IMG/VR virus record: IMGVR_UViG_3300042013_000067
Coordinates: 32,001 to 96,000 of that record
Length of the DNA stretch: 64,000 nt
Direction: 5' to 3' (one strand)
Source of the DNA: a virus
Lineage: Duplodnaviria; Caudoviricetes
The notes beneath the pieces were generated by a model. The model was not told the DNA's origin. It saw nothing but the letters and a program-made list of their open reading frames with translations, and searched no databases. Positions within the stretch are counted from its first letter, which is position 1. The number at the start of each line of letters is the position of its first letter. A program made the position numbers and the translations under genes. Below, in pieces: positions 2,796 through 32,190 of this stretch.

Positions 2796-3548
2796 ATGAA
2801 CCAACCCGCTCGCCCTGCACTCGACCCGAATATCCTCGACGTAATGTCTAACTGGCTCTTCACCGATCCAGTACCGGGATCTTCGAAGCGTCCAAACTTC
2901 CGCGTCAAAGTGTTGGGCAACGTCCCACGCATCTCGGTCAAGACTAACGTCGAAAACGACAAGCAGTTCGGCAAGATCGACTTCCAAACCGATCTGGCGA
3001 CCTGGGGTACTATCATCGCACTGGCCAATGACATGGCTGAAGGCCGTGATGACAGCGACGGTTACAACTGGGATTACAAGGATGACTTCCTTGCCGGTAA
3101 GAAGCTCGATCGTGAAATGGTTCTGTCCACCCTGCAAATCGGGCGTGACCGTGAATCCGGCCGTATGTACATCTCGGTGCTGTCCAGCGACAAATCCCGT
3201 CCGCGCATCCAGTTCTGGTTCGGCCCTACCAAGTACCACGACATCCGTCACCGCGACGGTAGCCCACTGTTGCCGAAGAAGCTGTCCGAGTCGTTTGCTC
3301 GCGGCTTCCTGAAGCCAATCAGTGATCTGGTCACCCACCTGCTCATCACCACTTTCAACCCTGATGCCAAGAACGTGGCCAAGGCGATGGTTCCAGGCGG
3401 TGGCGGTGGTAATAACTACCAGCAGGGTGGCCGTGGCGGTAACAACTACGGTGGCGGCAATTCGGGCGGTGGCAACAACTACGGTGGCGGCGGTCAATCT
3501 CGCCCTCCGGCTAACGATGCCGTTGACTTCGACGACTTCGTGATGTAA
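2796..3548 (+). CDS. chmC: ChmC-like nucleus-associated RNA/ssDNA-binding protein (phiKZ gp67 position)
   Basis: Directly upstream of the gp68-like and PicA-like genes as in the conserved cluster; ~200-aa folded domain plus Gly/Asn-rich disordered tail; ATG 2796 with AAGGA SD. Confidence 0.7.
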   Translation: MNQPARPALDPNILDVMSNWLFTDPVPGSSKRPNFRVKVLGNVPRISVKTNVENDKQFGKIDFQTDLATWGTIIALANDMAEGRDDSDGYNWDYKDDFLAGKKLDREMVLSTLQIGRDRESGRMYISVLSSDKSRPRIQFWFGPTKYHDIRHRDGSPLLPKKLSESFARGFLKPISDLVTHLLITTFNPDAKNVAKAMVPGGGGGNNYQQGGRGGNNYGGGNSGGGNNYGGGGQSRPPANDAVDFDDFVM

Positions 3549-3665: not shown

Positions 3666-5225
3666 ATGAAACTTGAGGTTTCGCGAGTCCAGAGCACTGG
3701 TTTCGTCGAAGTACGGGCCAGCCATAAAAATGAAGATCCACTGATCTGGGCTGCTGGTGCGTACGGCAAAGTTCGTTTGGCGGATCCGACTGCGGTCTTC
3801 AATGAAATCAATGCATATTGGGCCACGTGCCCAGAAGAGGTCCTTGACGGTATTTGGGCATGTTACGTTGGTATCCATGCGGTAACTCGCTCGGTCACCG
3901 ATAGCTTTTATGTCGCTCAGTCCATCCGGTTCTATGTGAACAAGATGTACAGCCTGATGCCGATGGAATCGTTCAAACACTGGCTGCTGATTTATGGCAA
4001 CCTGCATGTGCCGACCGAGATCCAAGACAGCATCACCGAAGGCAGTCGTTACACCGATGAAGGTCAGACCTATCTGAAGTCCGACTACATCAATCTGGCG
4101 ATCTTCAGTTTGGCTATCCGGCCAATGCTGCCGATCTGGGGCTCTTACATCGATCTGATTCAGGACAACCAAAAAGGCAAAGAGCTGGATGCCTTGGGTT
4201 TGATTCTGGATACAGAATTGGTGGACTGGCCGGCTGAGCTTACGGTTTACGACAAGCTGCAACGTTACATCGATGAACGCATCAGTGACAACAGCATCAG
4301 CATGGCGAGTACTTGGAAGGGCTTGAGTTCTTCTGAGATTCCGAAGTTGATTCTGGCGAAAGTGATCGTCCGCCGGTTGACCATTGCGGTGATGTGTGAT
4401 CCACAGGCTACCAGTATCATCTCCAGTGTGCACTGGTACATCCGCTATTGCTTGAACCCAGCTGATCGCACCACAGCTGAACGGGTAAACGATAAGAAGA
4501 TCGACTCCAAGTCTGGTGAAGACGACGATAAGACCAGCTTCATCGATGCCCACAAAATCAAACAGAAGGTTGTCATCGGTGACGCGACGACTTTCGAAGA
4601 AGACGCAATGCGGCCTGCGTTGCTGGCACAAGAAGTAGACCCGACGATTGACTTGGGTTTGCTGGAACAGTGCTTGGCGTGCATTCCGAAGGTTGAAGAC
4701 TACCCGCTTGAAGTACACCAGAAGCGGTTGGCCCAATGGGTCATGGCTAAAGCCTTCAGCGCCAAAGCGTATCCACACATCGACAAGCCGTATCTGCACA
4801 ACCTCATCGCCACTACCCAAGCGTTACTGTGGCACTGGGGCTTCATCGACATCGCGTTGATCATGCAAACCTCGCGGTATGTTGAAGAAGGCATTACCGG
4901 CACCAGCTTACCGATTGCAACCAAGAGCTGGCCACGTATCCAACCCAAGTATAAGGAAGAGTTGAATGTAGCCTTTCCCTACTTGAAGCCCATGCGTCCC
5001 CGTCCAGGCGATAGTAACCCCAACGAACGGCATACTAACTACACAATCATCGCGATCACGAACATTACGACCGAGATCCGTTCGGCCAATTGGGTTTACC
5101 ACGGGCCTAAGGCGTTGTGGAATGTCAGTGACCAGCCAAAAGGTCACAACATCATTGCAATGCCTCAGCACTTCAAGAACTTACTAACGGACATGACTTT
5201 GCATCTTGCAAAGATCAACCAGTAA
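3666..5225 (+). CDS. Non-virion RNA polymerase promoter-specificity subunit (phiKZ gp68-like)
   Basis: 519 aa (about gp68 size), synteny between chmC and picA, AAGGAG SD. Confidence 0.75.
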   Translation: MKLEVSRVQSTGFVEVRASHKNEDPLIWAAGAYGKVRLADPTAVFNEINAYWATCPEEVLDGIWACYVGIHAVTRSVTDSFYVAQSIRFYVNKMYSLMPMESFKHWLLIYGNLHVPTEIQDSITEGSRYTDEGQTYLKSDYINLAIFSLAIRPMLPIWGSYIDLIQDNQKGKELDALGLILDTELVDWPAELTVYDKLQRYIDERISDNSISMASTWKGLSSSEIPKLILAKVIVRRLTIAVMCDPQATSIISSVHWYIRYCLNPADRTTAERVNDKKIDSKSGEDDDKTSFIDAHKIKQKVVIGDATTFEEDAMRPALLAQEVDPTIDLGLLEQCLACIPKVEDYPLEVHQKRLAQWVMAKAFSAKAYPHIDKPYLHNLIATTQALLWHWGFIDIALIMQTSRYVEEGITGTSLPIATKSWPRIQPKYKEELNVAFPYLKPMRPRPGDSNPNERHTNYTIIAITNITTEIRSANWVYHGPKALWNVSDQPKGHNIIAMPQHFKNLLTDMTLHLAKINQ

Positions 5226-16214: not shown

Positions 16215-16263
16215 CATAAAGCCCCTCCCTTAACCGGGAGGGGCCTATGTCGCTTTTTCTTTT
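16215..16263. terminator. Bidirectional CATAAAG-family terminator
   Basis: CATAAAGCCCCTCCC-TTAACC-GGGAGGGGCCTATG plus T tract, at a convergent junction. Confidence 0.85.
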
Positions 16264-16783
16264 ATATCCCCTGACCATTAGTTTGCTTGGCCAGTTCTCG
16301 TGCGGCTTGATCGGCAGCAGTATCCCGCTGTCGAATCGCATCTTCAGCCATTTCAATGACAAACATGGCGATCGGATACGGTAGATTCCAGAACTCAGTC
16401 AGTGAATAACCTTGTTCATAAATCCGGTAGGTGTGATAACGACGCACCAGACTAATCATGGGTCCGCCTTCCCATGTGTTCTCCTTAGGATGGAGAGCCA
16501 TTAGGGCCATTGGACGCATGGGGTCTGGGTTGTGGACATGGTCGTAGATACCATAGTCTGTTTGATAAGCCATCAAGCTGAGCTGAGCCGCAGCTGTTGG
16601 TCTTACAGCCGGGGAAGTGCGCAACAGTTCATCAATAAGCCCATGTTGCTGGGCTTGCTTTAAACCGAATGTTTTAAACAGGACATGCCCGTTAGGGTCG
16701 TCATCGTCAAGCGTTAAACGACTATAACGGGAGTCCGTGTTTATTACAGAATACGGTTGAGCTTCCGGCTTGCCAATCTGAAA
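16262..16783 (-). CDS. C-terminal extension of a tail/baseplate assembly chaperone, probably reached by -1 frameshift (GT/gp51-like)
   Basis: Frame is open for 173 codons from the slippery site to TAA at 16262; contains GYSLTEFWNLP, similar to the T4 gp51-like YSLTEIENMxP motif. Confidence 0.65.
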   Translation of the reverse strand, partial: FQIGKPEAQPYSVINTDSRYSRLTLDDDDPNGHVLFKTFGLKQAQQHGLIDELLRTSPAVRPTAAAQLSLMAYQTDYGIYDHVHNPDPMRPMALMALHPKENTWEGGPMISLVRRYHTYRIYEQGYSLTEFWNLPYPIAMFVIEMAEDAIRQRDTAADQAARELAKQTNGQGI

Positions 16784-18411
16784 AACTCCGCCAGTGGGTC
16801 AACCGGTACCAGGTTCTCGAAACGTTGCTTGAACTTGGTGGCTGCTGGCGAATCGCAAACTGGGCAATTGTAAGAATTGATTGCTGGCATGGCTACCAGA
16901 CTGTCATCGATATACTTCTCGACGGCAGCGTTGAATTCTTCGACGAGATCGTCGGAAGAGTAGATGTCCGAAAGAGTTTCAGCGATGAAGCTCTTGTCTT
17001 CAGAAAGGATACGGTAACCTTCTGGAGTAGTGTCGTCAAAATCGACGATCGCTTTAACCCAGTGTGCGTATTCACGTGCTGCAGTGGACTCAGCCAGCTG
17101 TTCGATGAACGCGCTGCGGTTACGGCCTTCTGGTGGTTCGTTGAAAGCACCCTGCGACATTTCGATGATGCCGCTGAGCCAACTACGACCCAGATCTTCA
17201 TGGTCATACACGTTCGGGCAACCGAACATGAAACCAAATGCCCCGACACGCTCTACACGACTGCGACCATGGACGTGGTGGCTGGCGTACGTGGTGAGTT
17301 CTTCTTTGGTCCGTGGAGCACGGGCGTCGATACGGAAGGACATATGACGTTTCTGCCACGGCGTCAGACCGTTGGTATCCACCCACCACATGTTGACCAC
17401 TTGGAAGAGGTCTTTAGCGATGTGGTTGCATTTACCGATGTCGGCGATGCATGGGTTAGCGTAGGTATAGCCACCTGGATACAGTGTCGCCGCCAGACCC
17501 AAGAGCACCCCTGGAATATCGCGGGTATCGATCAACGGTTTAAGATCCGTTGGTGTCGAGAACGCCACGTTGGCATTGGTTACGTGTTGCAATGCAAAGT
17601 CGACCACGATGGTCTTGATGTAGTGCGCGACGTTAGAGAAGGCCAGACCACGAGTTTCCGAACCCACTGTGAGCTTGACGTTAGCCACGTCTTGGTTCAT
17701 AGCAGTCAGTTCGACCAGCGATGGCGCTTTGAAGCGCAGCCAGATACCCGAGTGCCACAGTGGCAGGTCCACGGTACCACCCACACCCGACTTACGGGTT
17801 ACGTAAGACTTGAGTTCTTCTAGGGTGTACTTACCATCCGGGTCCAGTCTTTGAACCGGGATACCGCCACCGATCACCGAACCTTCGTGGGCAATGGTCT
17901 GTGACCAGTGTGAATCATCGCGAGCCAAGGTATTACGGTGACGATCCGAGTCGTCAGCGATGCCATTAGACAACGCGCCTAACAACAGGCGTAGGTGAGG
18001 GTCACCGACGTTATCAGGGATGCTGTCAGTCTTACGACCCAGCGTTGTGATCAGGCGGTTCTCACTACCCAACATGCGCTCCATCACCGCGGCGCTATGT
18101 TCCAGCGCTTGCTTCACTACATCCACGGATTCACGCAGGATAGCGATGCATTCGCTCAGCGGTGGCGGTTCTTTACCTTCTGGCAGTGGCTTGGTCACCG
18201 GACGTGTTTCGGTGAACACGTGCTTGTCCGCCGTTGGAGTAAATGGTTCTACTGCAGGCAGTGGTTCATCAGGAGCATCCTGTGGTCCAGTAGGTGCTGC
18301 CACCTCCGGCTCAGGCAATGGGACGCCTTGTTGCTCATCAGCACTCGCCCGTCCAACCGTCTCACCGAGTGCACCCTGCTCATTGCTGTTTGGTTCTTCA
18401 GGCGGTAGCAT
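16744..18411 (-). CDS. T4 gp26-like baseplate-hub / tail assembly chaperone (phiKZ gp77-region protein)
   Basis: 555 aa; LPLWHSG..LRFKAP, DIPGVLLGLAATLYPGGY..C....C.H and CPVC patterns resemble the gp26-like family; acidic/Pro N-terminus. Confidence 0.6.
   Translation of the reverse strand: MLPPEEPNSNEQGALGETVGRASADEQQGVPLPEPEVAAPTGPQDAPDEPLPAVEPFTPTADKHVFTETRPVTKPLPEGKEPPPLSECIAILRESVDVVKQALEHSAAVMERMLGSENRLITTLGRKTDSIPDNVGDPHLRLLLGALSNGIADDSDRHRNTLARDDSHWSQTIAHEGSVIGGGIPVQRLDPDGKYTLEELKSYVTRKSGVGGTVDLPLWHSGIWLRFKAPSLVELTAMNQDVANVKLTVGSETRGLAFSNVAHYIKTIVVDFALQHVTNANVAFSTPTDLKPLIDTRDIPGVLLGLAATLYPGGYTYANPCIADIGKCNHIAKDLFQVVNMWWVDTNGLTPWQKRHMSFRIDARAPRTKEELTTYASHHVHGRSRVERVGAFGFMFGCPNVYDHEDLGRSWLSGIIEMSQGAFNEPPEGRNRSAFIEQLAESTAAREYAHWVKAIVDFDDTTPEGYRILSEDKSFIAETLSDIYSSDDLVEEFNAAVEKYIDDSLVAMPAINSYNCPVCDSPAATKFKQRFENLVPVDPLAEFFRLASRKLNRIL
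16780..16786 (-). promoter_or_regulatory. Candidate -1 ribosomal frameshift site G-TTT-TTC
   Basis: In-phase GAG TTT TTC 12 codons before the stop; the -1 frame has a TGA just upstream and is open downstream. Confidence 0.65.
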
Positions 18412-18940
18412 CGACTTGTTTCTCCAGAATGCTTACGTATTCTTCTTCAACCGTTTTGGCCAGTGCCATCATCAACGGTTGGATACCGTCTTCGTAATGG
18501 GTGGCCAGCTTGTTGTAGCCATCAGCCAAGTCCAGAACGTCGGTTACTTCCGATGCTGCTGGCGCGCCAGTCTTGCCCTTGTGGAAGGCGTACAGACCCT
18601 GCAGGTTTTCGTTGTAGTTGCTGATGTCGACGCACAAGGTATTGAAACCCCGCTCGAACGCAGCTGGATCATTCAGGTGCTTCTTGATTTCAGGCAGCTC
18701 GTGCTTAACCGGAATCACCCAAGGACTGGTGTTGAGGATGAGGCCTGCGCAATTCTCATAAAGCTTGCCCAGGATATCGAAGCCCATATCGGACTTGAGT
18801 GCTTCATCGGCAGCGATAGCGCCCATTTCGGCGACCTGACCAGCGATGGCTTGTTGTTCGGCGACTGGCAGCAATGCGAAGTCTTCCAGTTTCTTTTGTT
18901 CCGGTACGACGATAGCGCTACCGTTGATCAGCTCGCTCAT
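18398..18940 (-). CDS. Hypothetical protein, first gene of the minus-strand chaperone operon
   Basis: 180-aa ORF with AGGAGAAGAGG SD, overlaps the start of the 555-aa gene. Confidence 0.8.
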   Translation of the reverse strand: MSELINGSAIVVPEQKKLEDFALLPVAEQQAIAGQVAEMGAIAADEALKSDMGFDILGKLYENCAGLILNTSPWVIPVKHELPEIKKHLNDPAAFERGFNTLCVDISNYNENLQGLYAFHKGKTGAPAASEVTDVLDLADGYNKLATHYEDGIQPLMMALAKTVEEEYVSILEKQVDATA

Positions 18941-31750: not shown

Positions 31751-32190
31751 CCACTGCCCACCAGTTCGCCCAACAACTCAAGGCGATCGAACCGGCCAAC
31801 ACCAATATCCGTCTGGCCCGTAGCCTGACCCTGGTCCATGCTTTCGCCATGGCGGTACCGGTTGGCAACTACACCAACGCCGAACAAGCGGCCGACGCTT
31901 CCAGCGATCTGTTGAAGAAACTGATCAACGACGTCAACGAACACGTCACCCTCGACACCAAGCTGTGCATGGGGTTGCTGCTGCCTACCCTGAAGCTGCG
32001 CTTCGAACTGATGGCCGGGACTACTGACCCAGCCCTGATCAAGATGGTCCTGAACTCCGAAGCTGCGGCTGAACTCAAGGGTCCAGATGACTTGGCCATG
32101 ACCGAGTACCTGACCAGTCGTCCTGGTTATGCCAAAGAACAATTGCTCATCAGTGAATCTGTTCGCGAACTGATCGCGGACAACGCCTGA
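31747..32190 (+). CDS. Probable virion structural protein
   Basis: 147 aa, ATGA overlap with the upstream gene, strong codon bias. Confidence 0.75.
   Translation: MTTAHQFAQQLKAIEPANTNIRLARSLTLVHAFAMAVPVGNYTNAEQAADASSDLLKKLINDVNEHVTLDTKLCMGLLLPTLKLRFELMAGTTDPALIKMVLNSEAAAELKGPDDLAMTEYLTSRPGYAKEQLLISESVRELIADNA

Follow-up and report, generated by a model that had tools for sequence, protein, structure and literature searches.

The locus considered here lies on the minus strand of a 64,000-nucleotide (nt) stretch of DNA from a virus of the Caudoviricetes (positions 32,001 to 96,000 of the IMG/VR virus record IMGVR_UViG_3300042013_000067), referred to in the following as the window. The virus record that contains it is complete, spans 283.6 kb and shows terminal repeats, and the closest phage is Pseudomonas phage Noxifer with 76% nucleotide identity. 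The locus comprises an open reading frame (ORF) of 555 codons, read from the sequence at 16744..18411, for a 555-amino acid (aa) protein of the phiKZ gp77 family, followed by a small ORF which is in all likelihood the recoded 3' end of the same gene. The 555-aa ORF ends with the residues ...PLAEFFRLASRKLNRIL and a stop codon. Eleven codons ahead of this stop, within the codons GCG GAG TTT TTC AGA, a run of five T (16785-16781) is found at Phe543 and Phe544 (16785-16780), and the proposed slip site G_TTT_TTC extends over 16780..16786. The -1 frame is closed by a TGA at 16799..16801, six codons upstream of the slip point, and is then open from 16780 for 172 codons up to a TAA at 16264-16262 (extension, 16262..16780), the predicted products being 555 aa and 544 + 172 = 716 aa in length. 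At 16744..16779 the two frames would overlap in dual-coding fashion, with frame 0 giving RLASRKLNRIL, the end of a predicted C-terminal helix, plus the stop, and frame -1 giving QIGKPEAQPYSV. The adjoining 119 nt (16625..16743), which appear as an intergenic gap, read as coding sequence in the -1 frame and hold an invariant GHV..FG motif. The earliest ATG, GTG or TTG in the -1 frame of the window is the TTG at 16624, and none precedes this motif. An earlier sequence-only reading of the window had described the end of the 555-aa gene, the -1 frame closed by a TGA and then open through the gap, the TTG start of the small ORF and the two product sizes, all of which were found as claimed. Its slip site stands as far as the T run and the open -1 frame are concerned and is not a perfect heptamer, since G_TTT_TTC does not match the canonical X_XXY_YYZ: re-pairing in the -1 frame is possible for the A-site codon, and the P-site codon is mismatched at its first base.

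According to the GenBank notes on homologues, the 555-aa ORF corresponds to phiKZ gp77, PhiPA3 gp074 and 201phi2-1 gp136 (phrog_4585), and the extension to PHIKZ076.4, PhiPA3 gp073 and 201phi2-1 gp135 (phrog_12109). Eight GenBank loci were examined (Noxifer, PhiPA3, KTN4 as phiKZ, Phabio, PA1C, Serratia phage PCH45, Klebsiella phage KPN8 and Bacillus phage AgentSmith), together with 32 distinct IMG/VR loci of 25-73% protein identity, which were found by means of a 6-sequence alignment and which, with the window added, make up the 33 loci of the tallies below. The same IMG/VR search gave no matches with a single sequence, and an 8-sequence alignment was too diverse. A run of five to eight T at an invariant Phe-Phe (FF) dipeptide is present in 8/8 GenBank phages and 32/32 IMG/VR loci (~40 loci) and sits 8-44 codons before the frame-0 stop across all loci examined. 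Beyond the T run, the frame that stays open is always -1, never +1 or 0, and it does so for 150-179 codons at every locus. In phiKZ (KTN4) and PhiPA3, where the conserved TTT-TTY site and the open -1 frame had been suggested as a check, both are present. The pattern T_TTT_TTY occurs at 24 of the 33 loci, with T_TTT_TTT, T_TTT_TTC and T_TTT_TTA among the relatives; the Noxifer-like clade including the window has the shortest run (T5), and many relatives carry runs of T7-T8. Moreover, the first Phe codon is TTT in 33/33 loci, compared with a TTT:TTC ratio of 172:339 (34% TTT) elsewhere in the same genes, for which the naive probability, not corrected for phylogeny, is ~1e-18. In AgentSmith the T run is kept in a different register, GTT TTT TTA (Val-Phe-Leu), i.e., as the heptamer T_TTT_TTA. 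Because of this register and the uniform use of TTT, the T run appears to be conserved beyond the constraint exerted by the FF dipeptide. AgentSmith is a 200-kb Bacillus phage which shows the same architecture with an annotated 'gap' of 215 nt (L045, ~4350-4870), and its upstream gene is already annotated as 'putative baseplate hub assembly protein'.

Searching with the extension by tblastn yielded 71 phage records, in which the matches begin at extension residue 1-2 and reach into the 3' end of the gene upstream. In an alignment of the 33 extensions, the GHV..FG motif contains an invariant Phe and is located 21-44 residues past the slip point. At 21 of the 33 loci including the window, the stretch from the upstream -1-frame stop to this motif is free of ATG, GTG and TTG, and the other 12 offer scattered start candidates only, just one of them with a Shine-Dalgarno-like sequence. 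Public records (KTN4, PhiPA3, Phabio, Noxifer, PCH45 and others) annotate two genes, as would be correct if these were independent and the small ORF started at the TTG at 16624 or a later ATG, leaving the open frame upstream without function. This arrangement is what all public annotations list, and both a TTG and an ATG are available in the -1 ORF of the window; still, it is regarded as very improbable. The annotated products of the small gene vary from 80 to 182 aa, and within the records of Noxifer, PhiPA3, KTN4, Phabio and PA1C (L001-L005) the starts differ by up to ~70 codons and all omit the GHV..FG segment, for which most loci have no upstream start. The similarity at the protein level begins at the T run itself, and the constant -1 relation of the two frames likewise speaks against separate genes. 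Termination-reinitiation is excluded in PCH45, as frame 0 of this phage reads on for 44 codons after the T run, so that its stop falls downstream of the motif.

Among 1.84 billion representative proteins, 1,746 family representatives at 50% identity were identified with a profile, and the best 150 of these were checked for natural fusions together with 22 further hits. Among these 172 proteins no in-frame fusion was found, and all of them end within ~35 residues of the FF position (136 fit a strict motif pattern of 8-34 aa, and 36 were judged by eye). Homologues of 686-687 aa in BFVD were considered as fusions and rejected, as they are N-terminally longer instead and the same metagenomic phage has a separate downstream ORF of 171 aa. 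The preservation of both frames without any fusion indicates that the two-frame design is under selection, and this speaks for a need of both forms. As judged from the compared sequences, the two-ORF layout is not due to chance. A single gene broken in two by an indel from assembly or sequencing would be at home in a homopolymer, where such errors are frequent, and is nevertheless hardly credible in view of the same two-frame layout in ~40 independent genomes and metagenome contigs, the conservation of both frames past the site and the count of 0/172 single-frame representatives.

The phage of the window itself was not found in any RNA run by the sequencing-run search. At a phiKZ-like locus (L016), RNA contigs from four studies cover the last part of gene 77, the T7 run and the extension without interruption and without an indel in the run; contigs drop minor variants, so that the genomic T7 excludes only a majority edit and not minority slipped transcripts. 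The contigs end ~10 nt past the stop of the extension; in three of the four runs their ends lie at 3313-3333, with the stop at 3323, and a nanopore contig features a poly(A) end at 3333. In the contigs of two runs an extra A follows position 3321, at the extension's stop and transcript end, which is probably a strain difference or the result of poly(A) tailing during library preparation. These data bear on the question whether the slippage on the T run could be due to RNA polymerase (from phage or host), in which case a subset of mRNA with one extra or missing U would encode the fusion. The T7-T8 runs of many relatives have lengths known for transcriptional realignment in bacteria and phages, these phages encode their own unusual RNA polymerases, and no conserved frameshift-stimulating RNA structure was found, all of which is compatible with such an event. 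However, the clade of the window keeps the same architecture with a T5 run, too short for efficient slippage, and the L016 contigs run counter to an edit of the majority of transcripts. Transcriptional slippage is accordingly considered improbable, and ribosomal slippage is the event that we infer and favour. As to RNA structure near the site, some clades only (L029/L030, L036-L039) possess an 8-bp hairpin 8-10 nt past the T run, a spacing as expected for a frameshift stimulator, and these hairpins are missing from the clade of the window and from most others. A 5-bp hairpin ahead of the T run, proposed by a terminator scan, was dismissed as it is not conserved.

Upstream of the 555-aa ORF, a homologue of gp78 (180 aa, phrog_14050) is encoded at 18398..18940 on the same strand and shares 14 nt with the start of the 555-aa ORF, which makes it probable that both belong to one operon. 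This homologue is annotated as 'putative virion-associated protein' in KTN4, and phrog_14050 has no assigned function. On the other side, 17 nt past the stop of the extension and between convergent genes, a GC-rich hairpin (GGCCCCTCCC / GGGAGGGGC) followed by TTTAT is located at 16216..16245 of the minus strand. It is probably a terminator and the likely end of the transcript, and it is possibly bidirectional; the terminator scan reported a terminator-like site of the plus strand at 16236-16260. In view of the 14-nt overlap, gp78, gp77 and the extension may form a unit of three cistrons. In the window and six relatives, the neighbouring genes encode a superfamily 2 (SF2) helicase, gp78, gp79 ('structural head protein') and the RNA polymerase beta subunit. 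The remark of the sequence-only reading that the gene is not adjacent to a tape-measure gene in the window applies.

An AlphaFold model of the 555-aa form reached a predicted local distance difference test (pLDDT) score of 82 and a predicted template modelling (pTM) score of 0.83. It shows a disordered segment at residues ~1-41 and two similar alpha/beta modules at ~213-345 and ~385-555, in which the four conserved cysteines C321, C328 and C516-x-x-C519 are located. In a Foldseek search against BFVD, ~20 proteins of gp26/gp51 type with ~250 aa appear below the protein's own family, among unnamed entries. They carry names such as 'Baseplate hub assembly protein, bacteriophage T4-like', 'Baseplate hub subunit' and 'Baseplate hub assembly chaperone', and match with E-values of 8e-5 to 1e-2, a probability of 1.0 and template modelling (TM) scores by target of 0.45-0.60, predicted models being compared on both sides. 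In the ESM Atlas, the protein matches a cluster of 542-aa viral proteins, 14% of which contain PF12322, with a TM score of 0.45 over 317 residues. When the gp77 family profile was set against a combined gp26 and gp51 profile in hhalign, the result was an E-value of 5e-4 and a probability of 31% with the CxxC region aligned; the comparisons with gp26 and gp51 ranged from 18 to 31% in probability and from 5e-4 to 1.4e-3 in E-value, and a reversed control gave 0.5%. Pfam contained no match for the 555-aa protein or the extension, PDB yielded neither a sequence nor a fold match, and the fold search of AlphaFold DB Swiss-Prot returned only noise for both models. The matching PHROGs families (phrog_4585 and phrog_12109) are without assigned function, and some GenBank records name homologues 'baseplate hub' or 'baseplate hub assembly protein'. 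The rest of the complete 283.6-kb genome yielded no canonical PF12322 gene, and control genomes were equally without a match. From the predicted structures, we infer that the gp77 family may represent an enlarged and very divergent member of the T4 gp26/gp51 fold class. The designation 'gp26-like' in the sequence-only reading consequently holds at the level of the predicted fold (Foldseek with BFVD, PF12322 cluster of the ESM Atlas) and does not extend to a significant HMMER match.

The same observations have to be weighed in the case that the frameshift is real and the protein serves another core function, for example in replication, transcription or the head. The helicase, the gp79 'structural head protein' and the RNA polymerase beta subunit in the neighbourhood would fit this assignment, as would the missing Pfam and PDB matches and the fact that the link to PF12322 was made by fold prediction only. 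Such a function is nonetheless rather unlikely, as many hub-assembly names of the gp26/gp51 type occur in the BFVD list below the own family, the ESM Atlas cluster forms a bridge to PF12322 and hhalign pairs the CxxC region with its counterpart in gp51. The lack of a canonical PF12322 gene elsewhere in the genome points in the same direction, as a weak argument given that the control genomes do not have a match either.

The extension was modelled as a mostly helical protein with a pLDDT of 74. In BFVD it matches its own family alone, and the ESM Atlas gave nothing informative. In a search based on protein language model (PLM) features, the extension reached sub-threshold scores of 0.81 for two clusters, one of PF12322 and the other labelled 'TAC GT'. 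The segment GYSLTEFWNLP, on the basis of which a gp51-like tail had been proposed, aligns with the gp51 tail (NYSLNSISKMIP) as the top local hhalign alignment in three comparisons, with a probability of <1%, which is not significant; this part of the earlier proposal was not upheld and is at most a lead. When the fused product was aligned collinearly with gp51, the probability reached only 15.7%. Homology of the extension to the T4 gp51 tail or to gp26 was examined and dropped (probability <1%), and none is claimed.

Taken by itself, it is highly probable that the 555-aa ORF and the small ORF downstream constitute one recoded gene of the phiKZ gp77 family. The majority of ribosomes would stay in frame 0 and produce the 555-aa protein, which ends in a short conserved helix, while a fraction would slip by -1 on the U run (UUU UUC, Phe543-Phe544) and read 172 more codons. 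The resulting 716-aa product would join the shared first 544 residues to a C-terminal domain that is conserved and mostly helical, the small ORF having presumably no start of its own that is able to yield the conserved N-terminal part of this domain. Both forms may act as non-structural factors which assemble the central hub and the tail of a contractile tail, in a fixed ratio as in the case of lambda G/GT. Owing to the predicted fold of gp26/gp51 type in the shared body, hub or tail assembly factors are the most likely assignment; as a separate claim based on models, this hub-assembly function has about even chances. For recoding in conjunction with a general hub-assembly reading, we estimate a probability of roughly 75%.

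Several points weigh against this explanation. The 716-aa product is a prediction from sequence alone, and the proposed function depends on a predicted-fold resemblance to proteins whose mechanism is itself unclear. HMMER gave no match to PF12322 above 24.5 bits for the protein of the window and four homologues, with T4 gp26 (216 bits) and gp51 (178 bits) as controls, and the hhalign support for PF12322 homology is weak. Besides, the gene is surrounded by replication, transcription and head genes and not by tail genes. At the level of the RNA, the site of the window, G_UUU_UUC, is an imperfect heptamer, and the FF dipeptide is itself invariant, so that protein constraint explains part of the conservation of the T run. 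No family-wide RNA structure was detected 3' of the site (fold z-scores ~0) or 5' of it (mean z -0.4), nor was a conserved, properly spaced Shine-Dalgarno stimulator found upstream; with no conserved stimulatory structure, the efficiency of frameshifting could be low.

In the literature, no paper describing a frameshift of the gp77 family was found. A conserved recoding event in this large jumbo-phage family (1,746 representative clusters) would correct two-gene annotations with arbitrary starts of the small gene, and the predicted 716-aa protein is invisible to current proteomics searches. A synonymous change of the T run would offer a simple handle for separating the roles of the two forms. 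Moreover, the chaperone design of two products in a fixed ratio would have arisen in a second protein family.

Among the known systems, the comparison with the tail assembly chaperones (TACs) of long-tailed phages is the most obvious one. The TAC gene of the lambda type is located between the tail tube and tape-measure genes, and its products comprise roughly 140 and 280 aa. A conserved frameshift in these chaperones of long-tailed phages (lambda gpG/gpGT; P2 E/E') was reportedly described by Xu, Hendrix and Duda in 2004. As in lambda G/GT, the gp77 locus features a predicted -1 shift on a slippery sequence which precedes the stop by few codons, a short and a C-terminally extended form, a downstream ORF without its own start and an architecture which is conserved while the sequence diverges. 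In contrast to lambda G/GT, the protein family is unrelated, the products of 555 and 716 aa are ~4x larger, the gene does not lie between tube and tape-measure genes and its protein is not known to bind a tape measure. No TAC entries appeared in the fold searches of PDB, AlphaFold DB Swiss-Prot and BFVD. The assignment to the G/GT family made by the sequence-only reading had therefore to be abandoned, there being no TAC match in Pfam and a different gene context, and the comparison would be valid only as an analogy, i.e., as two forms of an assembly factor generated by a 3'-proximal -1 shift. In the searched passages of the paper on the Goslar virion structure, no homologue was noted among the proteins built, the Goslar gene number not having been mapped.

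Homopolymeric frameshift motifs are established in dnaX (A_AAA_AAG), in insertion sequence (IS) elements and in the U_UUU_UUA type of the human immunodeficiency virus (HIV). The slippery motif of the gp77 family resembles these U- and A-rich sites in being homopolymeric and would be read by tRNAPhe. It differs from them in that the window has just G_TTT_TTC and that neither a conserved hairpin or pseudoknot nor a Shine-Dalgarno stimulator accompanies it.

The closest parallel in terms of the predicted fold is provided by T4 gp26 and gp51. According to precomputed domains, gp26 consists of PF12322 (T4_baseplate) alone, and gp51 of PF12322 plus a C-terminal PF28602. Both are listed as hub assembly chaperones, gp51 being essential and yet absent from the particle (PMC3004832). 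The gp77 family shares with them the predicted fold of the ~200-555 core and a conserved CxxC which aligns with that of gp51, as well as the occurrence of one fold in both a short and a long version, for which T4 uses two paralogous genes. It deviates from them by being twice as large with ~200 extra N-terminal residues, by a long form that would arise through recoding rather than from a second gene, and by a 172-aa extension without significant similarity to the gp51 tail. That the short and long forms of gp77 correspond in jumbo phages to the gp26/gp51 pair of T4, with the contractile-tailed phages of the T4 and phiKZ lineages both in need of a two-form hub or tape-measure chaperone, obtained in some of them by a conserved -1 frameshift and in T4 from two paralogous genes, can be put forward only tentatively, and we consider it less probable than the general assembly role. 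If the link to gp26/gp51 were true, the long-unclear function of these 'hub assembly catalysts' would become testable in a new system. Such an equivalence would further extend the principle of lambda G/GT to a second, unrelated superfamily and explain why T4 seemed to be without a frameshift of the G/GT type.

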